In this document: piece by piece, positions 1-26,945 of the stretch
Numbering within the stretch: position 1 is the first letter of the stretch
Layout of the letters: each line of letters starts with the position of its first letter
NCBI GenBank assembly: GCA_016702305.1
Contig: JADJEH010000011.1
Span: 19,561 to 83,560 of the forward strand
Length of the DNA: 64,000 nt
Source: a bacterium
GTDB lineage: Bacteria > Electryoneota > RPQS01
Direction: 5' to 3'
Program-made: the position numbers and the translations under genes
Notes under the pieces: generated by a model
What the model was told of the DNA's origin: nothing
Seen by the model: only the letters and a program-made list of their open reading frames with translations
Database searches by the model: none

Positions 1-2918
1 TGATATCTTGCTGTTTGCGAGCGCGCCGTTAAAGTACCTTGTATTTGACGAGGCCCATACATACGATGGCGCCGCTGGCGCGGAAGTCGCGTGTTTGATC
101 AGACGAATTCGAGGATTGGCCCGAAAGTCACCTGAAGAGGTTATCTGCATTGGCACATCGGCGACTTTGACCGATCCGCAGAAAGCAGATGATGACGGAG
201 CTGCCAAACGCTTTGCGTCACGCTTCTTCGGCGTTGATGAAGCCAACGTTAGCTTGGTAGGCGAGGCATACGTCCAACGGGAATGGCCGCAAGAAAGATA
301 TCGGCCGGAACCTCCGCAAGGCAACGGCATGGAAAGAGTGAATCGGCTCATGACTGCACTCGGTGAGGAAGCTGACATTGCCGTCATCAAGTCCGAAGTG
401 GAATGGCTGACAGGCAAAACGTTTGAACCGGGCAAAGATTGGAGAACCTCGCTCTTTGACCACCTCATTGGGAATGATTACGTCTATTGCGCCGAGAACG
501 CTCCAAGGCTCCGCAAGAACTTGTGGAAGGCGCGTGGATTGTCTCAAATCAGCTGAAACCCAATCGTCTTCCTCAGGAGCCTGGCTAACGCAGAACTGCT
601 GGCGTATCTTGCGCTCGGCGCTGCGGCCCGGAAAGATGATGAGTCATTGCTTCGACCCAAGGTTCACTTCTTCATCCGCGGCTTAGAGGAAATGGTTGTT
701 GGGATTGGAGGCGATGCTGATGCCACGAGAGTCGAGCTCTACCCCTCAATCAAACATGGCAAAGACGCAAGGCCGCTCGCACGAGATAGTGCGCTATTTC
801 CAGTGCTCGTCTGTCGTGAGTGCGGTCAGCACTACTTTGAACGGAAGTATGAGAACCTTGAGCTAAATCAGACAGGACGCCGAGTCGAATTGCTCAATGG
901 CAATGCACAAGGTGATTTACTCCGCGGTGGAAATGCGTGGTGGGGGCCGACATCAGCTGATTCAGGCACAAAGTTAGTCATGACCAATCGCCTATTGGAA
1001 GAAGGCGACGAAGATGAAGAAAGCGCGGCAGATAGGAAACTCACCAAGGCGTATCTCTGTCGAGATTGTGGAGCGTTGCATACAAATCCGGGAGAAAAGT
1101 GCTTAGCTGAAGGCTGTGGTCATCTGGCTGCACTGCTCCCGACTTATTTGATAGGCGAGAAGGTCTCGAGTTGCCCGACCTGTCGTGCATTGTCCCGGAA
1201 GATTGGGGGCAGAACGCTCGAGCCAGTGAGGTCGGTGCGCGCTGTTACTGTGTCAGACGTTCACATTCTTGCACAGGAAATGATCAATGCGGCCCCGGAA
1301 GGTCACAGGAAGTTGGTTGTTTTTGCGGATAGTCGTCAGGATGCGGCTTTTCGAGCGGGCTGGATTCAAGATCATGGCCGACGCATCCGGTTGCGTCATA
1401 TGATGTTGGAGGTGATACGCAAAGCTGATCAGCCACTTTCGTTTAATGATCTTACTGACAAGCTCCAAGGTAGCTTCCAACGTGACAAGAAACTCGCAGA
1501 AGCGCTGTTACCTGAAATGTTTGAGGAGGATGCAGCCATCATCTTCGAGCAACGAAACGAGTGGGTTCGCGTGGGCAAGGCACTTGGGTATATGGTGCTG
1601 CGTGAATTTACTTCCGGACTTCGTAAGCGAGAAGTATTGGAAGCTCTTGGCTTAGCGCGGCTCGAGTACAACGGCATCACGGCTGAAGATTCAGGTGTTT
1701 CCGCATGGGCAGCGATGGTGGGCATGGAACCCGAGGACGCTGTGCAAGGAATTTCGTCGTTGTTAGACAACTGGCGAAGAAGCCGAATGCTGTTCGTGCC
1801 GGATGACCCCATCTATTCGCGCTATCACCCGAAGGACAGTCCATATCTTCAAAGTGGAATTCTCCCATTGCGCGATTTTACGCCGACAGGGCTTGTCTTA
1901 AAACCCCTCGCGCAGAATCGAGCAAGGGCGAAGCGTTGGCGGAATCTCGTTAATGACAAAGGTTCCGGTGCGCTCCAAGTTCTTCTGCGAAAATGGACGC
2001 GAGGTCAAAGCAACATTGACGCCATGAAATGGGCAGAATTCCTTTGGGACATTCTTACAACGAATTTGAAGTTGCTTGAGAATGTCATTCTACTTGACTC
2101 CCGAGGTAAAACGCTCGCAGACGAAGTCTGGCAGCTCAACTCGGATTGCATTAAGGTAGTAGAACAGAGTGGGCGTTTCAGATGCAAGAAGTGTCAACGC
2201 GTTACATCACGACCATCTCCCCAAAACCTCTGCATGCAACGAAACTGTGATGGAACGGTCGTCCACGAAGAACCAAATTTTGAGGACTATAACGTCTCTA
2301 TTATGGACCGTGCCTTTACCATGGTCAATGCGGAAGAACACACCGCTCAGGTTCCCGGAACGGTCAGGGCAAAGGTTGAGCAAGACTTCAAATCGGCAAA
2401 GGGTAGAACAAACTGCTTGGTTGCAACTCCCACACTTGGAGTTGGGAGTTGATATAGGCGCGCTAGACATGGTCTTACTCCGGAACGTGCCCCCACAATC
2501 AAGCAATTACTGGCAACGTGCCGGTCGTGCCGGACGTCAGGAGCGCATGGCTGTAATCAGCACTTATTGCAGGAGAGCCAATCACGATCGGTTCTTCTTT
2601 GAGGATCCCTTAAGGTTGCTTAGTGGTTCAATCGCTGCGCCGGCGTTCAATTTGCGAAATCCGGTCATGCTTGAAAAGCATATAAGGGCAACGATACTTA
2701 CTGAATTGTTGCAATTGTCTCACGGCAATACCGAACAAGCAAGACACATTCAAACAGTGCTCAGTGTTTTGTTCCCGCCGTTCATTCGTGACTACTTGCT
2801 GGATTCCAACAACAGTTATAAGACAGATCCACAAACTACCGCGTCACTTGGTACTTTGCTTGACCAACAATGTACTACTTTGACGAAAAACGTTCTTTCC
2901 CACTTCGTGAAATTCTGA
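1..2918 (+). CDS. Superfamily-2 DEAH-box helicase, 5'-partial at the window edge, with Zn-ribbon inserts. The reading frame is broken by an in-frame TGA at 554-556 and a 1-nt indel near 2438
   Basis: Motif II 'VFDEAHTY' and motif III 'GTSATL' lie in ORF 8..556. A motif IV-like 'KLVVFADSRQDAAF' sits near nt 1310. Motifs V/VI 'VATPTL(E)LGVDIGALDMV...QRAGRAGRQ' span the frame switch at ~2440. Four Cys pairs fall between the RecA-like halves (CRECG, CRDCG, CLAEGC, CPTC). Pieces 8..556, 647..2452 and 2169..2918 join into one protein if one base is removed near 2438. Confidence 0.7.
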
Positions 2919-2986
2919 CCAGACGAAACAAATGGGGTTGGTAGATAGGGGCGGATTAAGGCCGTGATACAGACACTCCGGACGAA

Positions 2987-4473
2987 TTGTCATTAGTGAT
3001 ATCGAGGCTTCACAAGCGGCTAGACTGGGCGCTTGATACTCAGAAAGAGCTGCACCGCAAGAAAGAGACTAGGAAACTCGACCAAGAAGAGCGGCAGATG
3101 CTGCGGCGGTGCAACGACTTTATTGAGATATCACGAGTCGTGAACGATCGACTTATACGCTTGCCGTTCTGAGCACCGAAGGTTTCTTCCAGGGTATGGC
3201 ATGTACGAGGGCGGGATCACGGCTTCAGCAGCATCAGGATTTTCTCAGAGGTCTGGTCCAGTCACGTTTGAATTGTCGAGGTCACAAGCCGTTGCGTTGG
3301 GAGAGTTTGTGCCCGGGAATAGGCTGTATGCAAATCGAGGAACCTTCTACGTTTCACGCTACCATCTAGGTGCAGGAACTGAAGGTCAAATTGAATTACT
3401 GTCAGTTGACCCAGAGCAGGGGTTTGTTGCTCGCGAAGGCGTTGCCTCAGCATATGGTCAAACGGGTTTCCAAACACTTTATGCAATGCCAATTGTTGAC
3501 CTAGATATTGCGCATGAAGGTCGCATTACTGAGGACGAGGTCCTTCGCTTCTCAATGCCAGTTCTGATTGCGGGTCGTCTATTGAAACATCATCGAGGTG
3601 GCAAAGCATTCAAAATAGGTAAGTACGGAGACCCACATGTTGCGTGGCCAAGGAATACAGCTTGTGAATCTTGGCGAGGCAGGGCTTGCAAAGGCTAGTG
3701 GAGGCGCCACGAACTAGGGTTTCATATTTGTTCTGTATGTGGGGCAGCCAAAAGCCCTTACGTTGTACCTCTCGAGCGACAACATTTTGATGAACACCAC
3801 AGGGAGCGTTGCGGCCGGGATCCTGTTCAATTAGGTCTATCTGCAAAGACAGACGTTGACATGCTATTGTTCCACAAAATCAGTAGCCTGCCAGAAGGTG
3901 TGAACATTGAGAGATACTAAGAACTGCCGCAGCTCGAATATTAGACATGGGGCACGATGACCTCAACTGATGCCAATACCTGGTTCAGATGGCACTCTAG
4001 ACTACACTATTTATGACCCGATGCCAGGCGGTTCTGGGTTCTTGACCAAATGTTAAAACGTTGGCCGGAGTTAATAGAAGCAGCATATGATGTCGCCTCC
4101 TGCAAAGCCGCTTGCGAGCGTGCCTGTTACATTTGCCTTAAGACCTATCGAAACCAGTTTCAGCATGACCACCTTGATAGAAACTTAGCCCGTACCCTTC
4201 TTGTCGAACTGGGCCAAGCCCCAGAATTGCATCGCGACATTGAGCCGGTCCTTGATAAAGGAGACTCCGGAACTGGGTCACCAAGCAATCCCCCCTGGGA
4301 TGAGCAGATCTCTGCATGGCGACCCTCAGCAACAAGTTCGTGACAATATCATTCGCCAAGCATTAGAACTCGACGGTTTCGCCGTAATTGTAATCCAAAG
4401 CAGAGATCTCAATGATCCGGAAATAATGAGATCGCACATGGCAACTTTGTCGGCCGCATTGTCAAAAGCCTAA
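2987..4473 (+). CDS. Cys-rich Zn-binding region resembling the DUF1998/MrfA C-terminal domain. It is either the helicase C-terminus or a separate DrmB-like partner gene, and has several frame breaks
   Basis: Co-directional ORF pieces 2987..3172, 3201..3698, a frame at 3720-3900 and 4050..4343/4201..4473. Cys clusters 'ICSVCGAAK...HFDEHHRERC' and 'CKAACERACYICLKTY', plus a 'YDPMPGGSGF' motif. It sits directly 3' of a DEAH helicase, as in MrfA, DruE and DrmA/B architectures. The domain call is from memory of family signatures, not a search. Confidence 0.4.
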
Positions 4474-5381: not shown

Positions 5382-6710
5382 ATGTCTATTAATACATCAG
5401 ACGAGAAATGGAAGAACCACCTTTACAGGACTGGCTCACATATCGGTAGCTATGACGACGTTCCAGACAATCCCGATCAATTGCGTAAGCATATAGAGCC
5501 GTGGCTGTCTGCGGTTTTTCAAAGTGAGCATTTGTCACTACTTCTCGGAAATGGTTTTGGAATAGGGGTTTCCGGTGGCAAATTCATGGCTAGCATGGGT
5601 GTCTCCCGGGATTCGACGGGCCATTGGCCGAATTTGTCGAACAGGCCTCAAGTAGGTCAGCAAAATGCTCCGAACGTGGAGTGCCCAATTTTGAGGACAA
5701 CTTACGCGTTGCAAATGAACTACTAAGAGGACTGGAGATTCTCGCCGATCCTCGCTCAACCGACCTGCAAACGCAAATTGGCACGAAGCTCCAGGTCTTC
5801 CTAAAATCGGTCTTGGAGTCTGAGCGCGACCTCCTCGCTGTCTTTGATAAAGGTGATCCTGAAGCGAACCTTCGACAAAATCTCCTCATATCTTTTCTTG
5901 TTGAGTTTTTGCAAGTCGAACACCATCTCGAGAGAGGCTAAATCTATTTACAACAAATTACGACCGACTTATCGAGTATGGTTGTGACCAAGCTGGGCTA
6001 CGCATCATGGATCGATTTGTTGGGATGTTGTCACCAGTGTTTCGTGCCTCACGTATGAATCTAGACTTTCATTACAACCCTCCCGGCATTCGCGGCGAGC
6101 CACGGTATTTGGAAGGTGTGATAAGGCTGTTCAAATTGCATGGCTCAATTGATTGGCGCCAATTGCGGCGAGAAATAAGGCGTCAGTCACTGCCTTTTGG
6201 CGCGCCTGACAACCATCCTGCGATAACAATGGGTCCACCAGACGGGGTAATCATATATCCAAATGCTGCAAAGACATGGAGACATCCGAGTATCCATACG
6301 CTGAACTATTCCGCGACTTCGCGGCTGCTACGTGCCGACCTAACTCAGTGCTTGTCACTTATGGCTATGGTTTTGGCGATGACCACGTTAACCGCGTGAT
6401 TCGGGATATGCTCACGATTCCTTCAACGCATGTGGTAATTATTTCGTATGACAATCCGGGGAAACGAGTTGAGTCGTTCTGCGACAAAGTGGGCCACAAA
6501 GCTCAGATATCACTCCTCATTGGTTCACACTTTGGTGAATTTCAAAGCCTTGTCGTAAACTACCTACCCAAGCCAGCGATTGATCTCATTTCTTCACGAA
6601 AAACCGAATTGCTACAGCGGCGCGGTGATGAACTACTGAGTACTCCTGACGACGCAACTGTAAAGCAAGGAGCTGGAGTCGGAGGCAATACAAATGCAAA
6701 CACCAATTGA
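5382..6710 (+). CDS. SIR2-family NADase-like defence protein, the SIR2 partner of a SIR2-HerA system. It is split into four frame pieces
   Basis: Gly-rich NAD loop 'LLGNGFGIGVSGG'. 'LFTTNYDRLIEY' reads in frame 1 just upstream of ORF 6007. 'KLHGSIDW' follows. These are the classic SIR2_2 motifs GxG, TTNYD and KLHGS. Pieces 5382..5726, 5624..5941, 6007..6399 and 6276..6710 are co-linear. Confidence 0.65.
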
Positions 6711-8790
6711 AAGTGCTGCTGCACTAACTATCGGAACGGTTGAATCCGTATCGCCATCCGAGATTTGGGTTCTACTCGATACTGATGCACCCCAAGCAAC
6801 CGCTTTGAATGCGGGTACTCCAATCGGATTCCCACGGATCAATGGATACGTATTAATTCCAAACGAGACGGGTGCAGTTGTCGGAATGATTGTTTGGTTA
6901 GGCGTGGAGAGATCTGCTTTCCCAAAGCGACCTGGAATGAAAGACTTTGGTCTTATTGACTTGCCCTATCCGCCCGAAAACTGAAGCTCACACCACTTGG
7001 TACCTTGGTTCAAAGAATGGAGAAGGGAACCTACTCTTACAGGCTAGAGCGTGGTGTTTCTGCCTTTCCATCAGTTGGTGATCCTGCATCATTGCCTACC
7101 GAGACCCAACTTAGGAGCATTATTGAAGCACCCGATGTAGCTGATCAAAGAGTAACGATCGGAACTTCACCGTTGACCTCCAGCGCGCGGGTAACTGTTG
7201 ACCCTAACAAGGTCTTTGGAAGACACCTAGCGGTTCTGGGTAATACTGGAAGCGGTAAATCATGTACGGTTGCTGGCCTTATTCGCTGGTCGCTGGCTGA
7301 AGCTAAGGAAGCGTGTGTGAAGAGCCAAAAGAACAATCAGGTTAACGCTCGATTCATAGTCCTTGATCCAAATGGTGAATATGGCTCGGCCTTTGATGAT
7401 CTAACCTCTGTACGGCACTTCCGTGTACCTCCTTGTGAAGCCCCGTTCAAAGACCCAGTGCTACCTGCCTGGATGTGGAATAGCCATGAGTGGTGCGCTT
7501 TAACGCGTGCTGCGCCTGGAATTCAACGCCCGTTGTTACTGCAAGCACTTCGAGATATGCGAGCAGGAACGGAACTCAAAGAGAGTACTGAACGCCAATG
7601 TTGCCGATATCTTCGTTCTCACCAGTTTTCTCTCGAAAATCGAGTTGTTCGGGGACTTGATGGCTATGCGGCATTCCCAGAGAGCAACAATTGCGGCCTT
7701 CAGTTTGCAAATATTGCAGAAGACACCAAAGAGGTATGCAAGTGAATTCTCGGATGATCAGCACAAATCACTTCAAAACCTTGCTGAAACCGCCCAAAAG
7801 GTAGCGGACAGTCGACATTGGGAGAATCTGGCAAAGGGAACTGGAGGTTATAACGCCTTCAGCGAGTCTGATGTATTATCAGTCATTGAGTGCATTCGCA
7901 AGGCACTTGGAGGCATTCCCGTGAAATTGACAACTGAGCCGATAAGCGAGGATGCTCCTTTGCACTTCGATGTCAATCTCCTTCCCGACCACCTCGAACA
8001 AGTCGCGAATATCTCGCCGAGCTCGCAGGCCTCGCTGCTCATATCGACCCTTACTTTACGAATCCGCATGATGCTAGCAGATCGAGACTGGGACCAGTTG
8101 TTAACCCGGACGCTGCTGCAATTTGCTTCGAAGACTGGCTGAGGTGATTACATTGGGAATGATGGAGCATCAATGGGCAGCTGGTAGTTCTGGATCTATC
8201 GTTGCTGGTCTCAGCTGACGTGCTTCTGGGTTGTCGCCGTCATAGCACGTATCGTTTTTGAAGCAGTACAACGATATCGGCGAATTGAGCACATGGAACT
8301 ACCCACGGTCCTCGTTTTAGAAGAAGCACATTCGTTCATTCAGAGAGGCAGTGAACAAGATGATGGAACACCAAATCCTACGCAGATGTGCCGACAGACA
8401 TTCGAGCGCATTGCTCGTGAGGGACGCAAATTCGGCTTGGGTTTGGTCCTCTCGTCACAACGACCTTCAGAACTTTCTTCTACTGTACTCGCGCAATGCA
8501 ACACCTTTCTGCTTCATCGTATCGTCAATGATCGCGACCAGGAGCTAGTAGGAAAACTCGTTCCTGACAATCTAGGCGGATTGTTAAAGGAACTCCCGAA
8601 CCTGCCGTCCCGCCAAGCAATTCTCTTAGGTTGGGCAGCACAAGTGCCCGTACTCGTAGAGATCAATGAACTTCGAGAAGAGCATCGCCCAAAATCCGCC
8701 GATCCGAAATTCTGGGAAGTTTGGACAGGGAGTGAAGAGCGAACTATCGACTGGAAGAAAATCGTTAGTGACTGGACGGGAACAACGTAG
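6694..8790 (+). CDS. herA: HerA-like FtsK/HerA-family ATPase with an N-terminal HAS-barrel. It is the partner of the upstream SIR2 gene and is split by frame breaks
   Basis: The N-terminal HAS-barrel-like segment is 'IGTVESVSPSEIWVLLDTD...NGYVLIPNETGAVVGMIVW'. Walker A is 'LGNTGSGKSCTV'. The Walker B region is 'VLVLEEAHSFI'. Pieces 6694..6984, 7005..7745, 7507..8142 and 8293..8790 are co-linear. The break at ~6977 is an A-run length change. Confidence 0.65.
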
Positions 8791-9685
8791 TGTGCTAAAG
8801 AACGGAGTGACTGCCCTACTTCGGTTTTGGGCCACGCACTTGGCACAAAAGGTGAGGGGTTATTACAAGTAGAATGTTCGATAAGTCCAGTCAGACGGCC
8901 CGACAGCGTATCATGGTATCGATTCAATGTCGTTCCCCCCAATCTTGAAATTCCGATCCGAATCGTGTATATTGATTCGATTATCATCCGTTTTCCGCAC
9001 GCTCTCGCTTCGACAAATGACGTAAAATCGTCTCGTCGTCGCGCCTGCCTTCCGTCAGCGCATTTGGCACAAAAGGATCAGTATTATTACGGTGTACTGG
9101 AGGGTAAAGGCCCGCTTGCCTGGATTAAAGAGATGATTCACCTTTGAAAGCGCTAGCTTTGTTGTTTACTGAACATAGTTTAGCAGGCCTTCCATGCAAC
9201 TCAAAAGCCGCGAAGGCGACGAAGGCGTGAAGTATTGGTAAATCAATCGTATAACAGCGAATCAAGGTGCGACCCGCGATGACGACACACGTAATCCCGT
9301 TTTGTCACATTGCAAAATAGCGTAGGGCAGAAGTCTCTCCGACCCACGAATTCTGCATAATAAATTCCGACTTTGGCCATAATTGGCGGACTCATTTGTA
9401 CTGGTCGTCACGAAGTGAACGCGTTCTGAGCAAACAGTCGAATAATCGATAGCCTCTAAAATACTCCTAATTGGGTCAGAATTAAGAACTCTGACCCAAT
9501 TTTTTTATTCACTCATTGATAAACAATAACTTATAGATTCCAGCAATGTGGAGAAAATCGAGATATGCATCTGACATTCGTTGACCCACGGCAACGTTCG
9601 CGCTAAATTGTGGATGCGAAGCAGATTCCATCTAGCCGCACGTTTCCCTCCCAGTTCAAGAGTTATCAATTTTACAAGGAACGCC

Positions 9686-12600
9686 ATGAAGACCCTGGTT
9701 TTCGTCTTGCTCACTTTTTGCAAGCTCTGTCTTTGCAATTCCCCAAATTGTCAATACCAAGGTCAGTTAACATTGTCGTCAGGAAGTCCACTGACAATCA
9801 CAGTGGCAATGTCGTTCAGCATTTATACTGAATTTTCAGGTGGTGCTGCGGTATGGACCGAAGTCCATCCTGCGGTCGTGGTCACCGGTGGCCTATTCAA
9901 TGTCAGCCTTGGATCGCTAACATCGCTTAACGATCTATTCGCCAACAATCGTTGGCTTGGAATCACTATCGGGTCGGATGCAGAAATGTTGCCGCGAGAG
10001 CAAATTAAGTCGGTTGCTCATTCTTATCGTGTTGGAACAGTGGATGGGGCAACGGGCGGTGTTATCACTGGGGATGTTCGTGGAACTGCAAAGGGAACCT
10101 TTGGTTCAGGAAGCATCGCTTCTGGTGTCGCTGCAACAGTCTCCGGGTGGTTCGGGCAACACTGCAAGTGGAGAATTAAGCACTGTTGGCGGTGGAGATG
10201 CCAATACCGCTTCAGGAACCTGGAGCACGGTTGGTGGTGGATACGAGAACACAGCCTCCGGTGAAATGTCCACGGTTTCTGGCGGCAATGTCAACTTCGC
10301 GCCATCAGACTACTCAACTGTTGGTGGTGGCGTAGGCAACAATTCATCGGCAGCCTATTCGACTGTAAGCGGCGGCGGCAATAACGAGGCAAACGGCGTG
10401 CATTCAACGGTGGGTGGCGGTACCAGCAATTTGGCCAACGATTACATTACGACCGTGTCCGGAGGACTTAACAACACGGCCAATGATTCCGGTAGCTTTG
10501 TAGGAGGCGGACAAGACAACGTCGCTATGAATTCTTTCGGTACAATCGGAGGGGGACGTAGCAATGCAACAGCAAGCTCCTATTCTACAGTTGGCGGCGG
10601 GCAAAACAACTCGGCATCGGACGACTATGCTTTTGTCGGCGGCGGACAAAATAATACTGCCGAAGCCACAGGCGCGTCCATTGTCGGCGGCGACAGCAAC
10701 CAAGTCTGGTCCAGTCACGCTTTCATAGGCGGCGGACAAAAGAATTACGCCAATGCTTCTGGCGCTGTGATCGTTGGTGGCGCAAATAACATTGCGTTCG
10801 GTATTAACTCAACCGTGGGCGGTGGTAGCTTCAATAAAGTGCGCGGCGACTATTCCCTGATCGCAGGCGGCGGGGGAATACTGCATCCGACTCGAACAGC
10901 ATTGATGCAATTTCTTACAATAGCATGATCGGAAACGGATCTCGAAACAAAGTACAAAACGCGCCTTACGGAGTAATCTCTGGAGGTAACAGTAACACTG
11001 TTTCAAACATGTTTTCTACAATCGGCGGTGGACTTAACAACGTTGCTAGTGGCAATACGTCTACTGTTGGCGGGGGAAACCTTAATCGGGCACGCGGCGA
11101 CTATAGTGTCATCGCGGGAGGAGGAGGCGGCGGCAGGGCAGACTCAAATAGCGCCAGCAACACCAATTCCACTATCGGCGGCGGCAAAAGTAATGTAGCC
11201 AGCGCCATTGGTTCGACTGTTAGTGGCGGTACCCGAAACAGGTCCCGGGGTGACTACTCGGTTGTGAGTGGAGGTGGCGGTGCATCTTCAGCAGATTCCA
11301 ACAGTGCCATCGGTGATTGGTCAACAGTGAGCGGTGGTCACAAGAATTTCTCTGGCGATCAGTTTGCGTCGGTTAGTGGAGGCGAGAATAACGCCGCAAG
11401 CGCGCTCGGTTCAACTGTGAGCGGCGGACGATTCAACCGTGCGAGCGGCGCATATTCAGTAGTTGCAGGCGGCGGAACCTCCTTGCTTGCCGATTCCAGC
11501 AGCGCCTCTGGTCTAAACTCTACGATCAGCGGCGGCCGAAAGCACTCGGCAAGCGGTAGTTACTCGGCAATTAGCGGTGGAAACGAAAACAACGCCAGCG
11601 GTACCTATTCATCCATAGGGGGCGGCGCCAGCAACATAGCAGATGGGATCGGCTCAACAGTCAGTGGAGGTCGCTTCAATCGTGCAAGTGGCCTATACTC
11701 CGTGATCGGCGGCGGCGGCGGTGCTTCAGAAGCCGACTCCAATATCGCCAGCAGTTCTTATGGTACAATCGGTGGTGGTAATCGAAACATTGCCAGCGAT
11801 GTGGGCGGGACTGTAAGTGGCGGGGTTGGGAACATCACGCGTGGTGTCTACTCAACTATCGGGGGCGGCTACAGCAACGGCGCACACGATACAGCAAGTG
11901 TGGTTGGCGGTGGTTACAACAATTCCCTCTATGGAGATTATTCGGTGATCGCAGGCGGCCAGAATAATCACACAGTACACCATTATGCGACTATCGCGGG
12001 AGGCTACGGTAACGAGGTGATTGGCTACTACTGCACCATTTCGGGTGGCGGGGACAATACGGTCACTTACAGTTATGCCACAGTTTCTGGAGGGCGCTAC
12101 AATGGAGCACACGGCAACCATGCCACGATAGGTGGTGGAACCTATAATTTCGCTCGCGCGAGCGGAGCAGTAATCGCTGGAGGTGGAACTGGCTCTGCCG
12201 CAGACTCAAATAGTACGGAGGGTGGTCAATCAACCATCAGTGGTGGATCAAGAAACTATATAGATAATGGCGGATTTGACGGGACAATTGGCGGTGGATA
12301 TTTTAACCGTGTAAGCGGACAGAGGGGCACCGTAAGCGGTGGCTCGCAGAACATCGCAAGCGGAGAATTTGCTACCGTAGCTGGAGGAGTAGGCAATACG
12401 GCTTCAGGCAACTATTCAATATCAATCGGTGGCGCAAGCAACAGCGCAAGTGGAGACGCCGCTACCGTTTGCGGATTTACGAACTCTGTAAGCGGAGATT
12501 ACGCGTTTGCGGCTGGAAAGAATGTGGATGTGGCAGGAACAGGTTCTGTAGCCCTGGGCGCCAACATTAGCTGCAGCGCCGACAGCTCGTTTGTCTTTTC

Positions 12601-13083
12601 CGACGGAAGCGGTCCACTGTTTAGCATAGGTGCAGAAAACACATTCAACGTTAAGGCTAATGGAGGAGGTAGGTTTTGGACGACAGCAGATCACGCTAGC
12701 AACATCGGGACGCGGCTCGCAGCAGGGGATCGTCATGGGTTGCTCTAAGCGATTCAACGAAGAAAACAAATCGAATACCTGTAGATTCAAAAGCAATTTT
12801 ACAGAAGGTCGCCGCGCTTCCGATTGACCAGTGGAACTACAAGCATCAAGCGGATGGCCCTTTGCATATTGGGCCAATGGCTCAGGATTATTGGAACGCA
12901 TTCCATCTCGGTGAAGACAGTTTAGGCATCGAAACCATTGACGCAGACGGCGTGCTGTTCGCGGCGGTGCAGGAATTGGCAAAACAGAACGCGGAGCTGA
13001 AGCAAACAAATGACAAGCAAACATCAGAGATTGCTGAACTCAAGCAGTTGGTAGAACAAATGACTCAACTTGGAAATAAGTAA
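9686..13083 (+). CDS. Tail-fibre-like surface protein, paralog A of ~1,130 aa. It has a signal peptide, a conserved N-terminal domain, a long Gly-rich repeat core and a C-terminal intramolecular-chaperone (peptidase S74) domain. At least three frame breaks are present
   Basis: 'MKTLVFVLLTF...YQGQLT...VAMSF...VWTEVHPAVVVTGGLFNV...NRWLGI...EMLPREQ...HSYRVGTVDGATGG' matches the paralog N-termini. There are dozens of 'STVGGGxxNxASGxxS' repeats. The C-terminus 'IPVDSKAILQKVAALPIDQWNYKHQADGPLHIGPMAQDYW...GVLFAAVQELAKQNAELKQ' is the S74 chaperone signature. Frame switches fall at ~10145 (GGG run), ~12700 and ~12770. Confidence 0.7.
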
Positions 13084-13103
13084 CAGGACGATTCGGAATT
13101 CCC

Positions 13104-14327
13104 ATGAAAAGACTCTTACTCGTATTACTCCTTTCCGCGAACGCGATGGCGATCCCGAGGTTGGTGAACTATCAAGGTCAGTTGACCTCGCCGACCGGTA
13201 CGCCGCTCGACACGACAGTTGCGATGACGTTTAACATCTGGCCAACTCCCACAGGTGGAGTTTCAGTATGGACAGAGACGCATCCGGCTGTGTCTGTGAC
13301 TAACGGACTATTCAATGTTCAGCTTGGTTCCATCACCACTCTAACAGATCTTTTCTCAGTCAATCGTTGGCTCGGAATTGCAATACAAGATGACCCCGAA
13401 ATGACTCCTCGTGAGCAACTGTTATCAGTTGTTCATGCATATCGTGTCGGAACGGTGGACGGCGCGAGTGGCGGAACGATAAGCGGGAATGTGAATATTT
13501 CTGGCAAAGCCAATATCGGTAGTGGAAACGTCAACAGTGGCAGTTTCGCTTTCGTTGCCGGGCAGAATGATACGGCAAGCGGCCCTTTTTCTACGGTTAG
13601 CGGCGGTTTTGGCAATGTGACGAGTGCCAATTCTGCAACTGTCGGCGGCGGTTTTGGCAATTCGGCGAGTGGCACTGATGCGACTGTTGGCGGCGGTAGT
13701 GGCAATACGGCGAGTGCCAATTCTGCAACGGCGAGTGGAGGGAGTGGCAACAGTGCCAGCGGCGTCGCGAGTTGCATTCCCGGAGGAGCGAACAATATTT
13801 GCTCCGGAGTAGGCTCGTTTACTTGTGGGAATAACGCCCATTCCATCGGGGACAGCAGCTTTGTTTTTAATGATGGCAGATACGGCGGGAACATCGGCGG
13901 CCAAGCGCGACGGTTTATTGTGATCGCGTCCGACGGCTCCTTTATCCATACGAATAGTACCGCCACGTTGGGTGCCCAGCTTCCCGCCAACGCCACAGCG
14001 TGGGTTGCCATCTGTGACTCGACTAAGAAGAATCGGTATGGGCAAGTCAACACAAGTGAAGTGTTGTCCAAACTTTCTCACATTCCCATTGAAACATGGA
14101 GCTACAAAGACGACCCCAACCATGTGAAGCATATCGGCCCGATGGCGCAGGATTTTTACTCGGCGTTTCATGTAGGCGAGAGCGACACCACGATTTCAAC
14201 GCTTGATCCGGATGGCGTTGCGCTCGCCGCAATTCAGGAATTGGCGAAGCAGGTTAAGCAATTGCAAAGTGAGAACACTGAGCTAAGAAAACTGGTCGAG
14301 CAAACGATTAAATTGGGAAACAAATAG
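13104..14327 (+). CDS. Tail-fibre-like surface protein, paralog B of 407 aa, intact. Same N- and C-terminal domains as paralog A with a shorter Gly-rich core
   Basis: Signal peptide 'MKRLLLVLLLSANAMA'. N-domain '...NYQGQLTSPTGTPLDTTVAMTF...'. C-terminus 'CDSTKKNRYGQVNTSEVLSKLSHIPIETWSYKDDPNHVKHIGPMAQDFYSAFHV...GVALAAIQELAKQVKQL', matching the S74/endosialidase-chaperone pattern SD.R.K.N / IG..AQ / coiled-coil tail. Confidence 0.8.
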   Translation: MKRLLLVLLLSANAMAIPRLVNYQGQLTSPTGTPLDTTVAMTFNIWPTPTGGVSVWTETHPAVSVTNGLFNVQLGSITTLTDLFSVNRWLGIAIQDDPEMTPREQLLSVVHAYRVGTVDGASGGTISGNVNISGKANIGSGNVNSGSFAFVAGQNDTASGPFSTVSGGFGNVTSANSATVGGGFGNSASGTDATVGGGSGNTASANSATASGGSGNSASGVASCIPGGANNICSGVGSFTCGNNAHSIGDSSFVFNDGRYGGNIGGQARRFIVIASDGSFIHTNSTATLGAQLPANATAWVAICDSTKKNRYGQVNTSEVLSKLSHIPIETWSYKDDPNHVKHIGPMAQDFYSAFHVGESDTTISTLDPDGVALAAIQELAKQVKQLQSENTELRKLVEQTIKLGNK

Positions 14328-14330
14328 AGA

Positions 14331-16221
14331 GTGATAATGAAGATGATGAAATTCGCCATAGTGCTCTTCCTGTTTGCTGTGCAAGCCTTTGCAATCCCGC
14401 AAGTGATCAACTACCAAGGGCAGTTGACCTCGCAGACCGGAACACCTCTCGATACGACAGTGGCAATGACGTTCAATCTCTATCCGGTTGTATCCGGTGG
14501 AGCAGCGGGTTGGAGTGAGACACATCCGGCAGTTGTTGTAACAGACGGGCTTTTCAATGTGCGCTTAGGCTCCGTCATACCGTTACCGGATGTTTTCTCG
14601 GTGAACAGTTGGCTGAGTGTGACGATTGGCGCAGATACGGAAATGTCGCCGCGTGAGCAGATTGTGTCGGTCGGTCATGCCTACCGTGCGGGGACGGTGG
14701 ACGGAGCGACGGGCGGAACGATCACCGGAAAGTTGAATGTTGGAAGCGGCAACACAAACAGCGGAAGTTTCGCCAATGTGCTGGGCGAGTCCAATAGCGT
14801 CAGCGGCAACTGGGGAGCGATATCAGGCGGAAGTAATAACATTTCGACGGAAGGATTCTACAATGTTATTGGCGGTGGAGCTGGAAACATCGTAGAGGCG
14901 GGTATCGTGACGATCAGTGGCGGATCCCTTAATCATGCCTTTCCCAATGCCTATAACGCTGTCATAGCGGGCGGAGAAGGCAATTACGTCAATGGGATCT
15001 TTGGCGTCATCGGGGGCGGGAATTACAACAACGTCATAAGCGACAGTGCGGCAACGATCGCTGGTGGATTTTTTAATAGAGTGAGCGCGAACTATTCGGC
15101 CATCGGTGGAGACGCATACAATATTGCCAGTGGTCAAGGATCCGTCGTGAGTGGGGGTGTGCAGGATTCCGCGTCTGGTTCGTATAGTACTGTTGGCGGT
15201 GGTCAAGGCAATAGCGCAAACTTCGTTGCAAGTACTATTGGCGGAGGACGGTATAACACCGCAAGTTCGAACGCTACGGTCAGCGGCGGTGTAGGAAATG
15301 CGGCGAGTGGAAACACGTCAACAGTCGGAGGCGGAGGAGGGAATACCGCAAATGGCAATTCCGCAACTGCCAGTGGCGGTGAAGGGAACATGGCGAGTGG
15401 CGATTATGCAATTGTCGGCGGTGGTCATGACAATGTTGCTTCAGGCATCAGCACAACAATTGACGGCGGCGAATTTAATACTGCGAGTGGTAATTATGCT
15501 ACGGTCGGCGGCGGTGCAGGAAATTCGGCGAGTGGATACAATTCAACAATCGGAGGCGGTAGTATAAATTCAGCAAGTAACTTTTTTTGCAACTGTCGGC
15601 GGCGGAATTGGCAATAGCGCGAGCGGTATCGGGAGTTGCATTCCCGGAGGACGAAACAATTCCTGCTCCGGTGAGGGCTCATTTACCTGTGGGAATTATG
15701 CGCATTCCGTTGGTGACAGTAGCTTTGTTTTTAATGATGGCAGATATGGCGGCAATATTGGCGGCCAAGCACGGAGGTTTATCGTGGTTGCGTCCAACGG
15801 TACTTTTATTCACACGAACAGTACCGCTACTCTGGGAGCACAGCTTCCCGCCAATTCGACTGCATGGGAAGCCATCTGCGACTCGACTAAGAAGGAACGA
15901 TATGGACAAGTCAACACCAGGGATGTTTTGTCCAAACTAACGATGATTCCGATTGAAACATGGAGCTACAAAGATGACCCCAATCACATCAAGCATATCG
16001 GCCCGATGGCGCAGGACTTTTATGCAGCGTTTCATGTAGGCGAAAGTGACACCACGATCTCCACGCTTGATCCCGATGGCGTGGCACTGGCGGCGATTCA
16101 GGAATTGGCCAAGCAGAATGAACAGAAAGACACAAAGATCACCGAACTCGAAGCGCGAGTGAAACAGCTTGAGGCAGCGATCTTACAATTTGGGAATCTG
16201 ACACAAACAGATAAACAGTAA
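14331..16221 (+). CDS. Tail-fibre-like surface protein, paralog C of ~630 aa if read through. It is interrupted by a +1 frameshift at a T7 homopolymer at 15581-15590
   Basis: The N-terminus is 'MIMKMMKFAIVLFLFAVQAFAIPQVINYQGQLTSQTGTPLDTTVAMTF'. ORF 15784..16221 carries the S74-like C-terminus '...KKERYGQVNTRDVLSKLTMIPIETWSYKDDPNHIKHIGPMAQDFYAAFHV...'. With T6 instead of T7 the frame reads 'NFFATVGGGIGNSASG', which matches the repeat consensus of paralog B. Confidence 0.7.
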
Positions 16222-16232
16222 GGAGTCCACCC

Positions 16233-16697
16233 ATGAACAAAGCACTCGTCCTACTCTTCTTGCCCGCACTCTTGTGGGCACAGTCTCAGAGCGAGAATTT
16301 CACCCTAACAAAGTCCGTCATTGACGCAGGCGGCGGCGCGTCGAGTTCTACGAATTTCAACCTCGTTTCTGCGTTCGGTCAACCGACGCCAGTCGGTGTG
16401 CAGTCAAGCGAAAGTTTCACACTGTACGCGGGCTTCTTGACGCCGTTGCTTTCCGTTTCACCGCTGTCACCAATTCAACGCCTGGTAATTAAGGAAGCGC
16501 AACCGGACGCGGTACTTAACTGGGAAGCCATCGCCGGTGCGGGAAGCTACTCTGTATATCGTAATACTGCGATCAACTTCACGCCAGGACCCGGAAACCT
16601 AGTCGGCACAACAACGAATACTACATTTACGGACACAAACGTTTTGGCGGGTCCCGCTGTTCAGCAGTATTACATCGTCATCGTGAATAACCCATGA
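16233..16697 (+). CDS. Small secreted hypothetical protein of 154 aa with a signal peptide
   Basis: 'MNKALVLLFLPALLWAQSQ' is a signal peptide. The protein is Thr/Ser/Gly-rich and immediately follows the tail-fibre-like genes. No known motif. Confidence 0.5.
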   Translation: MNKALVLLFLPALLWAQSQSENFTLTKSVIDAGGGASSSTNFNLVSAFGQPTPVGVQSSESFTLYAGFLTPLLSVSPLSPIQRLVIKEAQPDAVLNWEAIAGAGSYSVYRNTAINFTPGPGNLVGTTTNTTFTDTNVLAGPAVQQYYIVIVNNP

Positions 16698-16864
16698 CAC
16701 GATCAATCAGACCCCTTGCGGCGTCGCAACCATTGTGGTCCTGTCCTTGGCATTCACTTGGTTTCATTTGGAAGCGCGTGAAATCGCAAATCAGGTTGCA
16801 CTTGACTTCATTCGATTTCGTTGGCGCGTTAAATCAATGATTTAACAGCAGATACATGTTGGGA

Positions 16865-16908
16865 CTGTCACGCCGGAGGTCGCGGGTTCGAGTCCCGTCG
16901 GCCCCGCT
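16865..16908 (+). other. 3' fragment of tRNA-Asp(GTC), running from the anticodon loop through the T-arm to the acceptor 3' strand, with no 5' half. It is a putative att core and island boundary
   Basis: 'CTGTCACGCcGGaGGTCGCGGGTTCGAGTCCCGTCgGccCCG' is near-identical to the 3' part of bacterial tRNA-Asp, whose 3' half is CTGTCACGCAGGGGGTCGCGGGTTCGAGTCCCGTCCGTTCCG. No D-arm or complementary 5' acceptor strand is present upstream. Confidence 0.7.
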
Positions 16909-16917
16909 AAAAAACAA

Positions 16918-16955
16918 GGGTTTACCAGAAATGGTAAACCCTTTTCGTTTTACCC
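16918..16955 (+). terminator. Rho-independent terminator, the native tRNA terminator, directly after the tRNA fragment
   Basis: The 9-bp stem is GGGTTTACC/GGTAAACCC with loop AGAAAT, followed by TTTTCGTTTT. Confidence 0.7.
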
Positions 16956-17049
16956 CTAAATCAGATCAATCTGATCATAAAATCATATAAAACAATTACT
17001 CGTAAAATTGTTCGAGATTTCGCTCGCTATTCTAACAGAAGCAACGTAT

Positions 17050-17098
17050 ATTAGTCATATGACTAATTCAATTGACCAATACAATTGACTAATTAGTC
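17050..17098. promoter_or_regulatory. Two palindromic operator-like sites upstream of the TetR gene, probably TetR autoregulatory operators
   Basis: A perfect 18-bp palindrome ATTAGTCATATGACTAAT lies at 17050-17067. A perfect 12-bp palindrome GACTAATTAGTC lies at 17087-17098. Both share the GACTAAT/ATTAGTC half-site, and there are direct repeats of CAATTGAC. They sit in an AT-rich region 50-100 bp upstream of the TetR start. Confidence 0.5.
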
Positions 17099-17146
17099 TC
17101 AAATACAAGCCAAGAATCAATTTCTACTCCCGGAGTCGCTTGAACC

Positions 17147-17959
17147 ATGACTGCAATGAAGAAAAAGCCCACGGTGGCCAAAGGTGCCCCGAAGACAAAA
17201 AGTTCTTTCGTTCTCGTAAACCGGACGCCCGGTGCCAGAATTCCGCAGCTTGAGACGATTTTGCCACCGGACCCAGCCACAACAAAGGGACAACTTTTCA
17301 TTGCGGCAACCCGTCTATTCTCGGAATTCGGATTCAAGGGAACAAACACGCGGGCGATCGCCAGCGCGGCGGGGGTCCGCCAAGTCATGCTGAACTACTA
17401 TTTCGGCAGCAAAGAACAGCTATACGAACAAGTCTTGCGCTATGAGGGCACAACGATGCTCAGTGTCATTTTTGGCTCGGCAACCAATAACAAGTCACCC
17501 GAAGAGATGTTGATCGACTCGCCGATTCGCCTAATGACCGTATTGCACGACAATCCGCAGTGGGCAGCGCTCTTAAGACGCGAAATCGCCGATGGTGCCG
17601 TGCACTTGCGCCGGGCATTGATCGGGGTTGCCGAACACGGACCGCTGGGTGCCAATCTGCACTTTCACGACGCCTATAAGGCCGCAGTCAGTAGCGGCAA
17701 AGCAGTCGATTTGCCCATCGAGGCTGTCCGCGAGTGCCTCTTGGCGATCGGTTACAGCGCAATCTACCTTGCCCCGCTAATCTCAATGATCAATGAACGC
17801 GACTTTCATGACGAAACGGTTTGGGAAGAATGGAAGCTGACGCTCAGCACCATCCTCAAACGCGGATTGCTCATTGTCGATGAGTCTCACGTCAAATCTC
17901 CGAACGTTGCGGGTGACAATAAGGATGGGACTCACATCAACCCGAAAATTCAGTCATGA
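17147..17959 (+). CDS. TetR/AcrR-family transcriptional regulator
   Basis: The N-terminal HTH is 'TKGQLFIAATRLFSEFGFKGTNTRAIASAAGVRQVMLNYYFGSKEQLYEQVL', a TetR_N signature. Length is 270 aa. Confidence 0.85.
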   Translation: MTAMKKKPTVAKGAPKTKSSFVLVNRTPGARIPQLETILPPDPATTKGQLFIAATRLFSEFGFKGTNTRAIASAAGVRQVMLNYYFGSKEQLYEQVLRYEGTTMLSVIFGSATNNKSPEEMLIDSPIRLMTVLHDNPQWAALLRREIADGAVHLRRALIGVAEHGPLGANLHFHDAYKAAVSSGKAVDLPIEAVRECLLAIGYSAIYLAPLISMINERDFHDETVWEEWKLTLSTILKRGLLIVDESHVKSPNVAGDNKDGTHINPKIQS

Positions 17960-18124
17960 CCGGCGGGGCAAGTATCATTGTTGTCGTCTTACTATTGGCC
18001 GCCGTTGTGCTTCTTTTGCTTTGGGTGTCGGGATCCAAGCGACCTTGTCCCCATTGCCGCGCGATGATGCCCAAGTTAAATGTACTATGCCCGCACTGCC
18101 GACGACAAGTGCCGATCGCGCACT
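17957..18124 (+). CDS. Membrane miniprotein of 55 aa with one TM helix and a CPHC...CPHC zinc ribbon, copy 1
   Basis: Translation 'MTGGASIIVVVLLLAAVVLLLLWVSGSKRPCPHCRAMMPKLNVLCPHCRRQVPIAH'. Its start overlaps the TetR stop as ATGA. A paralog lies at 22079..22248. Confidence 0.5.
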
Positions 18125-18202
18125 GAAAAATAGAGTCTCGGAAACGAGACAGTCACCCGCGGGTTCACCGCGACACGAGCGAAAGCTCACCAGGAGACAC
18201 CC

Positions 18203-18640
18203 ATGAAAAAGAAACTTTGGACACTGGTCCTGCTCACATTGTTCGCCGGCAATGCGTTTGCCGTTGGGACCGTGATGCAGCTACAGCAGACGATCCCGCG
18301 CAACTACTACGCGCAGTATGCGCCGGCGCAGGCACCAACGACGCCAGAATCCGTGCCTTCGGCCGAAGAACAGGCCGTCGCGCAACGCAAGGATTTTGTG
18401 GACCGGCTCACAGAACTGCGCGACCGGGAATCAAGCCTTGACAAACAGTCCATTCAGTTGATCCAGGACAATTCCGCGTTGGCGAGCCAACTGGAACAGA
18501 ACAACCTTGAACGCAAGCGAGTCAAAGTTGACCAGAAGGACGTCAAGCGCAACATCAAGGAGCTGGAGCGCGAGAAGAACATTTTCGACAAGAAAGATAA
18601 GCTGCGCAAGAAGATAGACAAACTCATGTATAGCAACTGA
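18203..18640 (+). CDS. Secreted coiled-coil protein of 145 aa
   Basis: Signal peptide 'MKKKLWTLVLLTLFAGNAFA'. The C-terminus is charged and heptad-rich. There is no counterpart in the second module copy. Confidence 0.55.
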   Translation: MKKKLWTLVLLTLFAGNAFAVGTVMQLQQTIPRNYYAQYAPAQAPTTPESVPSAEEQAVAQRKDFVDRLTELRDRESSLDKQSIQLIQDNSALASQLEQNNLERKRVKVDQKDVKRNIKELEREKNIFDKKDKLRKKIDKLMYSN

Positions 18641-18642
18641 TC

Positions 18643-19020
18643 ATGACAGCCCCTAATGTCACCGTTGTCGTTCCGCTTACGGTCGGCAAGCGAACGGAAG
18701 CAGCTCACCAGAAGCCCCGGGAATATGGATTCCTATTGGTGCTCGCCGCGATGGCCCTCGTCATGTGGCTTTTCAGTCGATTCTTCAGTTGGGGCCGGAC
18801 GACCAAACCCGTGCTTAGCAAGAAAGCTGAGAAACTTTTGAACGAAATTGAAACTCTCGAAATCCTGCAGGAACAAGCGAGACTTGACCTCCGGAGAGTT
18901 CGACTCGAACAAAAGACACTACAGGCCGAAGAAGAAAATGAACGGCAAGCCAACGCTGAGCCGCCCGCGGCAACCGAAAGCCCACGGTCAAACAACGGCC
19001 ACGTCCCAAGGCCACAATGA
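18643..19020 (+). CDS. Membrane protein with a coiled-coil tail of 125 aa, copy 1
   Basis: TM helix 'YGFLLVLAAMALVMWLFSRFF', then 'KPVLSKKAEKLLNEIETLEILQEQARLDLRRVRLEQKTLQAEEE'. It is ~65% identical to 22356..22733. Confidence 0.55.
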   Translation: MTAPNVTVVVPLTVGKRTEAAHQKPREYGFLLVLAAMALVMWLFSRFFSWGRTTKPVLSKKAEKLLNEIETLEILQEQARLDLRRVRLEQKTLQAEEENERQANAEPPAATESPRSNNGHVPRPQ

Positions 19021-19133
19021 TGACTGATTGGAGCTTACGCAGGATCGTGTTCGGCTGGCTAATTCGACCGGCGCGCTCGTACTGGCAGCTTGGCTCGTCA
19101 TTACCGCCGCGTCCCGGTATTGGAATAAGTAGA
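19017..19133 (+). CDS. TM miniprotein of ~38 aa, copy 1. Relative to copy 2 it has a 1-nt frame difference
   Basis: 'MMTDWSLRRIVFGWL...', and after a -1 shift '...LVLAAWLVITAASRYWNK'. Compare copy 2 'MMTDWSLRSIVLGWLVPTGLLVLAAWIVVTAASRYWNK'. The start overlaps the upstream stop as ATGATGA. Confidence 0.3.
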
Positions 19134-19186
19134 TAATCGTGTCGTCAGTTGCTCGCGATCTGGCCACACAAGCAAACGAGGATAAA

Positions 19187-19372
19187 ATGGAAAAACTCAC
19201 GTTCAGTGGGACATGGCTTGAAGTCACAGGAAAACTCAAGCAGAAGTTCGGCCACCTGACCGACAACGATCTGATGTTCATGGAAGGCAAGGAAGAGGAA
19301 CTCTTGGGGCGGCTCCAAACGAAACTCGGACGAACTAAGGCGCAATTGCGCGAAATCATTAAGAAGATTTAG
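19187..19372 (+). CDS. CsbD-family general stress protein
   Basis: 'MEKLTFSGTWLEVTGKLKQKFGHLTDNDLMFMEGKEEELLGRLQTKLGRTKAQLREIIKKI' matches the CsbD pattern (KxKWGxLTDDDL...GKxExL.GK.QE.YG). An AGGAT Shine-Dalgarno sequence lies 7 nt upstream. Confidence 0.7.
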   Translation: MEKLTFSGTWLEVTGKLKQKFGHLTDNDLMFMEGKEEELLGRLQTKLGRTKAQLREIIKKI

Positions 19373-19440
19373 CGACTCCACGGGACCCGGATGGACGGTC
19401 CATGGTAAGCAGATCGGGCAACTAGAAGAAAGACTCACAG

Positions 19441-19902
19441 ATGAAAAAGCACTTTAAGGTCGTAGTGTTAGCGGTTGCGGTGGCTTCAATAGCAACGATT
19501 GTCGGCTGTTCGCAGACGTCCGAGCAGAAGCTCGCCGACGCCAAGGCCGAAGTTGTGGACCTCAAGAAGGATGTGAAAGTCGCCGTCGCAGAACAGACAG
19601 AAGCTGCCAAGCAGGTTGAGTGGCTCAGCTTCAAGAGCAACGCGGAAGTGAAGATCATGGCGAACGACAAAGCCATCGCGGATTACAAAGCTCGCATGTC
19701 AGGTGCGAATGGCAAACGTCGCGCCGAATACGACAAGAAGATCGACGCGCTGGAACTCAAGAACAAGGAGTTGAAGGCGAGGCTCGTGAACTATCCCGAA
19801 ACCGGGAAAAGCTCATGGGAACAATTCAAGAACGAGTTCAGCCACGACATGGATGAACTGGGTTCGGCACTTAAGGACTTCGCAGTCAACAACGAGAAGT
19901 AA
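19441..19902 (+). CDS. Lipoprotein, coiled-coil, 153 aa
   Basis: Lipobox 'IATIVGCSQ' after the signal peptide. The remainder is Lys/Glu/Ala-rich. Confidence 0.6.
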   Translation: MKKHFKVVVLAVAVASIATIVGCSQTSEQKLADAKAEVVDLKKDVKVAVAEQTEAAKQVEWLSFKSNAEVKIMANDKAIADYKARMSGANGKRRAEYDKKIDALELKNKELKARLVNYPETGKSSWEQFKNEFSHDMDELGSALKDFAVNNEK

Positions 19903-20003
19903 CGCATTGCCGTGCGAGTCGTGAGTCGTGTGTTACCAAGCATACACTCACGGCGGCGCACCGGTGGATTGTCGGAGACACAAAGGAGAAGTCGGAGATT
20001 TCG

Positions 20004-21566: not shown

Positions 21567-21819
21567 CCTGTCTTTGAACTGCGGCGAGTAGAGAACTTGT
21601 CAATTTCACTACACTGAGAGAAAGATGCACTGAAATCACATCCGTAATACTTGGAGTCCTTTTGAGTTGGGCGATCTTGCCTACATACGCCAAAAGGTCG
21701 CAAGTTGTGACAGCTGCACACCACGAGAACTCTGATCGGTTGGCTAGTGACCCATCAAACCTGGAACCATTGACCGCGACTCCGGTCGGCAATCCAAAGG
21801 GTGGCACCGTCGCCGGCAG

Positions 21820-22042
21820 GGCAGAGATCGACTCGCCTATCGAGCCCGTCCGCGAGTGCCTTTTGGCGGATGGCTAAAGCGCGATCTACCTTGCACCACT
21901 GATTTCGATGATCAACGAGCGTGACTGTCATGACGAAACTGTATGGGAGGAATGGAAGCTGACGCTCTCCACCATTCTCAAACGTGGACTGCTCATAAAC
22001 GAACCGTCGGCAGACAGCGTCAAACACAAAGCGCGCGATTAA
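21820..22042 (+). pseudogene. TetR C-terminal fragment, a duplicate of the 3' end of 17147..17959, with an in-frame TAA at 21874-21876
   Basis: 'IEPVRECLLADG*SAIYLAPLISMINERDCHDETVWEEWKLTLSTILKRGLLI' against TetR 'IEAVRECLLAIGYSAIYLAPLISMINERDFHDETVWEEWKLTLSTILKRGLLI'. There is no N-terminal HTH. Confidence 0.7.
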
Positions 22043-22078
22043 CGAGCCTCGTCGCACAACACACTGGAGTAGAAGCAA

Positions 22079-22248: not shown

Positions 22249-22355
22249 ACACCAGGCGCTTGCAATTGCATCAACCACACCCGGCACTCGTCCTCAGCCT
22301 TTCGGACATGCAACAAATCAATAATGATGAACAATCTAATCCACAGAAACCTCAA

Positions 22356-26317: not shown

Positions 26318-26345
26318 TCCAATTGAAAGAAAAAGGGTAAAGACA

Positions 26346-26906: not shown

Positions 26907-26945
26907 ACCAGTGGAATCGCAATGCATACCCCAAAGGAATCCAAC

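Follow-up and report, generated by a model that had tools for sequence, protein, structure and literature searches.

Replacement-type flexible genomic islands are regions in which genes for cell-surface structures are swapped by homologous recombination at conserved flanks, and the ICESt1-related elements of Streptococcus thermophilus exemplify both tandem accretion and integrase-less, att-flanked elements that can be mobilized in cis. Site-specific integration into tRNA genes is recognized by the Islander signature, which combines an intact tRNA gene, a displaced 3' fragment and a tyrosine integrase, and which includes a class of att sites centred on the anticodon (PMC4383910). In Pyrococcus yayanosii, the 44-bp Gln-TTG repeats of PYG1 are likewise partial tRNA genes that resulted from integration (PMC9897764).

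We identified an instance of this well-known kind of feature, a 3' fragment of tRNA-Asp(GTC) at 16865..16907 on the + strand, in the window, by which we mean the whole 64-kb stretch of DNA that was analysed. As in Islander islands, a 3' tDNA segment of about 43 nt that begins at the anticodon loop has variable, defence-rich DNA upstream of it and a terminator behind it. Unlike the window, these islands have an intact tDNA and an integrase, neither of which was found in the sequence examined, including the ORFs scanned for integrases; no empty site was found either, and the fragment of the window lies off the point at which strains diverge. The duplicated segment also agrees with that of PYG1 in length, in position and in being passed over by tRNA finders; PYG1, however, shows both repeats with a 21-kb element between them, whereas the window shows one repeat. 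With moderate confidence, we read the fragment as the displaced 3' end of a tRNA-Asp gene, an attR-type integration scar that later came to travel with the 3' ends of fibre operons. The initial annotation of this DNA had taken the same segment for an att core left by integration into a tRNA 3' end and for the free-standing edge of an island; the anatomy of a displaced fragment agrees with the first half of that proposal, and the second half did not hold.

The tRNA-Asp(GTC) fragment and its terminator

The fragment (CTGTCACGCCGGAGGTCGCGGGTTCGAGTCCCGTCGGCCCCGC) corresponds to positions 33-75 of 77-nt tRNA-Asp(GTC) genes and matches intact genes of this type at 43 of 43 positions, so that the tRNA identity proposed earlier stands while the length is 43 nt instead of 44. 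It runs from the first base of the anticodon loop (C32) through the 3' anticodon stem, the variable loop and the whole T arm to the acceptor 3' strand, the discriminator G and the first C of CCA, with CTA and not CCA at its 3' end after the discriminator. Immediately 5' of the match stand six bases (TTGGGA) that are incompatible with the anticodon stem. In 100 shuffles of the window, no match to the 43-mer appeared at three or fewer mismatches, and the 64-kb window contains no second copy at that threshold. Because ARAGORN called no tRNA gene in the window, Rfam gave no match at the gathering score and blastn-short with the whole tRNA as query returned no match to the 5' half longer than 10 nt, the sequence is to be regarded as a fragment and not as a gene. 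This agrees with the earlier view that a 5' half is missing, and leaves no complete tRNA-Asp whose unusual 5' half might have been overlooked. A weak Rfam match to tmRNA (13.9 bits) was discarded as an artefact of the T arm.

The exact 43-mer occurs in at least 120 genomes in a scan of one genome per species. Among the matches listed, ARAGORN-called tRNA-Asp(GTC) genes contain 114 of the 121 occurrences, and the carriers are mostly Acidobacteriota (Thermoanaerobaculia and Vicinamibacteria) and NC10/Methylomirabilota, together with LCP-89 and a few others. Scans of viral contigs found none with the 43-mer or with the left arm that precedes it in the window. The matches listed also include six genomes (L054, L066, L072, L091, L096, and L120) with 43-mer fragments of the same type, unrelated to the window, in which the 3' end is retained, the 5' limit falls in the anticodon stem or loop and a hairpin follows. 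L072 also has an intact tRNA-Asp, oriented like its fragment and 0.7 kb upstream of it. These matches suggest that tRNA-Asp is a frequent integration target in Acidobacteriota and NC10. In L054, two fragments (2130-2172 and 4060-4109) are separated by 1.9 kb, and the 8 kb examined contain no intact gene.

Behind the fragment, an A-rich spacer, a hairpin and a T-rich tail (16908..16955, no strand assigned) were delimited by a terminator scan and by folding, and close the fibre/p154 operon. The sequence 3' of the fragment in the window reads TAAAAAACAAG and then the hairpin, the A-rich spacer between fragment and hairpin being TAAAAAAC. The hairpin itself (16916-16943) starts eight bases past the fragment and has a 12-bp stem and a 4-nt loop, followed by TTCGTTTT. 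A terminator was called on both strands at this position, as for a bidirectional intrinsic terminator, and the features by which intrinsic terminators are recognized (a GC-containing hairpin, a T run, and a conserved structure) were all found. Fragment and hairpin together fold at -42.6 kcal/mol (z = -3.9). Moreover, six stem pairs are altered on both sides with pairing kept across five copies of the module to which the hairpin belongs; outside the terminator, the consensus fold of the whole module gave no covariation support (covariation term +0.8).

The stem-loop terminator that had been reported 3' of the fragment is thus supported by the predicted hairpin and its TTCGTTTT tail, scored on both strands. 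It had also been described as the original terminator of the tRNA gene, which conflicts with the joint recurrence of arm, fragment and hairpin in two other genomes, L177 (GCA_016721565.1) and L174 (GCA_964269295.1), both of which were reached via the conserved N-terminal domain of the fibre proteins. Since the hairpin recurs with the module and the DNA beyond it is unrelated, the terminator would not be a fixed piece of the native chromosome; judged from the copies aligned, it is not demonstrably native and appears to travel with the module, co-varying with it.

A module at the ends of fibre operons

The fragment forms part of a module of approximately 0.25-0.6 kb that runs from the C-terminal half of the p154 gene through a palindrome-containing arm of 167 nt and the tRNA fragment to the A-run and the hairpin. 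The p154 gene (16233..16697, + strand) encodes a 154-aa secreted protein and is the last gene in each fibre cassette. We refer to the haplotype of the window as H1, pieces of which are present in metagenome Ga0154020 (L123 and L161), and to that of three other assemblies of the same species as H2, the accessions given being GCA_963853605.1 (L001 and L165) and GCA_016712825.1 (L166 and L173). The left arm (16698..16864, + strand) is conserved across copies and carries the palindrome GTTAAATCAATGATTTAAC at 16828-16846; we infer that it is a candidate element-side att arm.

Five copies of the module were compared, namely those of the window, H2, and L174 and two from L177 (L177-A and L177-B), and in four of the five (window, H2, L177-A, and L177-B) p154 directly precedes the module. 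The fragment is identical to that of the window in L001, L165, L166, L173, L123, and L177-B. In the H2 copy, fragment and terminator are as in the window and the left arm is 97% identical, and in L177-B the fragment (43/43) and the spacer (8/8) are exact, with an arm at 76% (127/167) and a hairpin at 64% identity. The remaining two copies have decayed tRNA-like sequences: L177-A retains 34/41 positions of the fragment beside an arm at 87%, and L174, at an unrelated locus, retains 24/42 beside an arm at 64% (84% over its proximal 56 nt) and has a different hairpin. Taken across these copies, the junction at 16864/16865 appears to be internal to a conserved unit. No conserved second arm was found to the right of the module copies, the DNA past the hairpin being unrelated in every copy, and when the window and the DNA upstream of the other cassettes were searched for a second or decayed module, no score exceeded those of shuffled sequence. 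As regards p154 itself, its C-terminal half (16495-16697) is nearly invariant in nucleotides, at 100% between H1 and H2 and, for the last 58 nt, 97% between the window and L177-B, while the N-terminal halves and the fibre genes differ strongly.

The L177-B copy is a mosaic, with 51 of 51 positions identical over fragment and spacer against 76% over the arm (P ~8e-7 at 0.76 per site), and is hard to explain by neutral descent. Such a mosaic would be expected if the fragment had been copied from a tRNA gene held by selection while the element-side arm diverged. The much better conservation of the fragment than of the arm could also speak for a functional, tRNA-derived element of the 3' UTR (a processing or stability signal, or a recombination anchor) that is under selection and has spread by duplication of cassettes, with no part for an integrase. 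The module does end four of the five operon copies straight after p154, its hairpin is maintained by compensatory changes, and the fragment can fold into an extended T-arm hairpin just 5' of the terminator. We nevertheless consider such a role very unlikely. L177-A and L174 have lost the tRNA-like sequence and kept arm and terminator, which argues that this sequence is dispensable where it is now placed; selection for a function other than that of a tRNA would not hold 43/43 identity to the tRNA-Asp of other phyla, and neither covariation beyond the terminator nor a match to an Rfam family lends support to a structured element.

L177 contains two direct copies of the module 6 kb apart, each ending one fibre-gene cassette, and a third fibre cassette begins right behind the second copy. 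In their likeness to accretion of the ICESt1 type, the successive cassettes end in an arm and a tRNA-like core, one exact and one decayed, with no integrase inside; the difference lies in the lack of a conserved second arm, an integrase or an intact target gene in L177. Nor does the region read as a tandem array of integrated elements, the cassette between the module copies encoding only two S74 fibre proteins and p154. Since the copies share no second arm, the tandem arrangement is explained as well by an operon having been duplicated along with its 3' end as by accretion. We also considered that the module might be a functioning att site of tRNA origin, through which integrase-less fibre cassettes have accreted at a tRNA-Asp locus by means of an integrase encoded elsewhere; this is in our estimation decidedly improbable.

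In L174, the module copy is preceded by a gene for an Ig-like surface protein and followed by an AbiEi/AbiEii-like pair and an H1-like fibre cluster, which is 86% identical to that of H1 in nucleotides. The AbiEi/AbiEii-like pair (1496-3249 of L174) stands between the decayed module copy and the fibre cluster, with its first gene frame-shifted and a weak AbiEii match (E = 0.0012), and places defence-type genes beside fibre cassettes in a second genome too.

Genes and strain variation on either side

The defence and tail-fibre-like genes that had been noted to the left of the fragment were recovered with PADLOC and Pfam models, and all genes from 1 to 28 kb lie on the + strand. A DruE-like (Druantia) DEAD/Helicase_C helicase gene, truncated by the window edge (1..4343, + strand; PADLOC DruE models), has an in-frame stop at 554-556, which is a substitution, and at least three frame changes, as judged from tblastn frames against homologues and from the translation; further Druantia genes would fall outside the window. 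It is followed by a SIR2-HerA defence pair (5382..8790, + strand), identified by the PADLOC models PDLC04079 for SIR2 (4e-59) and PDLC04098 for HerA (4e-97 and 5e-87), in which each gene is split into 3-4 ORFs. Although the PADLOC matches are strong, frame changes or a stop interrupt every one of these defence genes. Three genes for tail-fibre-like surface proteins, also with frame breaks, occupy 9581..16221 (+ strand; Pfam Peptidase_S74 and LbR_Ice_bind); they are characterized by GGxxN-type repeats and by C-termini of the S74 intramolecular chaperone type, and are hypervariable between strains. When a repetitive fibre fragment of 1011 aa was the query of a protein search, the protein of the sister genome was not among the results.

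Two accounts fit these broken genes: the defence genes may be decaying, or the assembly may be locally wrong where strains vary. On the right, by contrast, long genes of up to 2022 aa are intact. As regards assembly error, the related IPK53 MAG (L166, GCA_016712825.1) also has indels in fibre genes that a third assembly shows intact. We also considered and rejected a prophage as the source of the tail-fibre genes, S74 proteins being common on chromosomes in many phyla and no phage genes lying alongside. No integrase or transposase domain was found in the scanned ORFs of the window.

Two intergenic features accompany these genes. The gap that separates HerA from the first fibre gene contains two occurrences of the motif TTGGCACAAAAGG-N7-TTATTAC (8840-8866 and 9064-9090), with none expected by chance in the window; the motif is also intergenic in two related genomes (L173 at 5985 and L175 at 2911) and may serve as a promoter or regulator site particular to this lineage. 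Just 5' of the first fibre gene, a conserved hairpin GGGTCAGAATTAAGAACTCTGACCC with a T run and a promoter-like stretch (9440-9500 in the window and ~6780-6840 in L173) constitutes the only similarity between H1 and H2 on that side, and is likely the left anchor for cassette exchange.

The left side is truly variable between strains. The fibre proteins of H1 and H2 share 35-70% amino acid identity, and the fibre genes of H2 are preceded by three unrelated genes (527, 490, and 503 aa); the 15.3 kb of H2 upstream of the fragment contain no DruE, SIR2, HerA, tRNA or integrase. The haplotypes are approximately 99% identical over 16495-17877 and again from 21814 on, and just left of 16495, inside the p154 gene, identity in the H1/H2 alignment falls to 75-85%. 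The island boundary that had been placed at 16864 is contradicted by this switch from variable to conserved sequence, which lies ~370 bp farther left. A switch inside a gene, at that distance from the fragment, is as expected for homologous exchange, and current strain differences would arise mainly in this way, at p154 and the module. The pattern resembles that of replacement islands, with fibre genes at 35-70% identity between flanks at 99% and switches inside conserved genes or promoter segments; the replacement model, however, needs no tRNA fragment, and accounts for the variability of the region while leaving the fragment's origin unexplained.

The first gene to the right of the fragment encodes a TetR-family regulator (17147..17959, + strand; Pfam TetR_N) and is preceded by operator-like palindromes at 17051-17066 and 17087-17098. 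Beyond it are genes for small coiled-coil proteins, a hybrid histidine kinase, a GT4 glycosyltransferase and a GH130 enzyme, followed farther right by ordinary chromosomal genes for T9SS substrates, an RND pump, and peptidases. Within this region, a segment of ~4 kb (17878-21813) is present in H1 and absent in H2, and encodes three coiled-coil proteins (145, 125, and 153 aa) and a PAS-HK-receiver kinase. Its flanks are a direct repeat of the 3' part of TetR (17697-17877 = 21820-22000, with a TetR remnant at 21827-22018), and relatives carry tandem TetR genes, which bears on this segment; it looks as if homologous recombination between TetR paralogues in tandem had deleted or duplicated it.

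The GC content is 50.8% over 1-16864, 53.8% over 16956-35000, and 57.3% over 35001-64000; the best single change point lies at 34.8 kb, and within the first 35 kb at ~10.1 kb, on the border between defence and fibre genes. Estimates made by eye in the initial annotation (48-52% on the left against >55% on the right) differ from these computed values, which show no step at 16.9 kb. Tetranucleotide usage is distinct on the left: the defence part correlates with the 35-64 kb region at 0.41 and the fibre part at 0.63, against 0.78-0.87 for 17-35 kb, a contrast that is partly inflated by the repeats of the fibre genes.

Relatives, att partners, and the origin of the fragment

Distant relatives give no sign of a native tRNA-Asp at this position. 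Among 42 metagenome loci with TetR homologues (65-83% amino acid identity), a tRNA was found in none and the fragment only in the near-identical L123. Upstream of TetR, the loci L145, L140, and L128 read as a giant Big_5/ice-binding protein, an OmpA-family protein, and tandem TetR genes, with no tRNA-Asp; L146 shares the downstream gene order, and its contig begins 685 nt before TetR. DNA similarity to the distant relatives starts at ~17047, at the TetR operators, and intergenic blastn against L146, L125, L148, L140, and others matched only query positions 350-407. Comparison with related genomes, which had been suggested as a way to find the empty site, thus yielded none among the 42 TetR loci, and the distance of these relatives makes this weak evidence.

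Neither an intact tRNA-Asp nor a direct repeat or integrase was found in the 64-kb window or in the 15.3 kb upstream in H2; the 7.5 kb upstream of the L174 module copy contain no attL, intact tRNA-Asp or integrase, and the scanned ORFs of L173, L174, and L177 contain no integrase domains. An intact tRNA-Asp (attL) and a tyrosine integrase might nonetheless lie farther upstream, in which case the left side would be a bounded and possibly excisable island that ends at 16864, with the terminator and the TetR side native. The orientation of the fragment, from which inserted DNA had been placed to the left, agrees with such an island, as do its anatomy and the defence and fibre cargo. Moreover, H1 and H2 differ in cargo behind a common right end, in the manner of alternative islands at one att site (PMC4383910), the DruE gene crosses the left edge of the window so that the variable DNA goes on upstream, and the source contig offers up to 37 kb beyond the window. 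We regard this arrangement as possible but unlikely, because the module, including its terminator, recurs in tandem and at another locus, the strain switch falls at 16495 and GC content has no step at 16.9 kb. The lack of tRNA-Asp in syntenic relatives also tells against it, and the many broken genes on the left suggest decay (or assembly error).

The same failure to find an att partner or integrase in the sequence examined would fit an ordinary tRNA-Asp pseudogene, the 5' half of which was lost by deletion, or when the fibre cluster inserted illegitimately, and to which site-specific recombination contributed nothing. Tandem duplicates of tRNA-Asp do exist elsewhere (JAXDGL010000002.1, L040/L059), and L072 has an intact gene beside a fragment. 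The break, however, coincides exactly with the 5' boundary of the anticodon loop, where integrases commonly act (PMC4383910). A one-off deletion, moreover, does not explain why the junction of arm and fragment is repeated in L177-A, L177-B, and L174, and relatives have no tRNA-Asp at the locus; such a pseudogene is, to our minds, very improbable.

We accordingly keep to the reading of a displaced integration scar on account of its start at the anticodon loop, the absence of a gene and the variable, defence-rich DNA on its 5' side. Counted against it are the lack of an attL or integrase in the sequence examined, the unrelated right flanks, the terminator that is linked to the module, the relatives with no tRNA-Asp, and the lack of a viral carrier among the contigs scanned. 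Under the preferred reading, site-specific integration of the tyrosine-integrase type, with a crossover at or near the anticodon loop, would have left the 3' fragment of tRNA-Asp, and exact copies of the fragment may have been drawn from a genuine tRNA-Asp gene. The fragment would then have become embedded in a module that closes the operons for tail-fibre-like surface proteins in this lineage. Present-day exchange between strains would be homologous, anchored by the segment of p154 and module at whose left end (~16495) the haplotypes switch, and not by the fragment itself.

Fragments of tRNA genes are the most precise markers of island ends, and a confirmed one would map the defence and fibre island to the base. 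In this locus, however, caution is warranted, as taking the fragment for the island edge would misplace the boundary by ~370 bp on one side and would mislabel the terminator as native DNA. More generally, the tandem copies in L177 hint at a cassette-wise growth of fibre-gene arrays, and if the module were a working att site, it would represent a cassette platform that diversifies surface fibres beside defence genes in uncultured bacteria.
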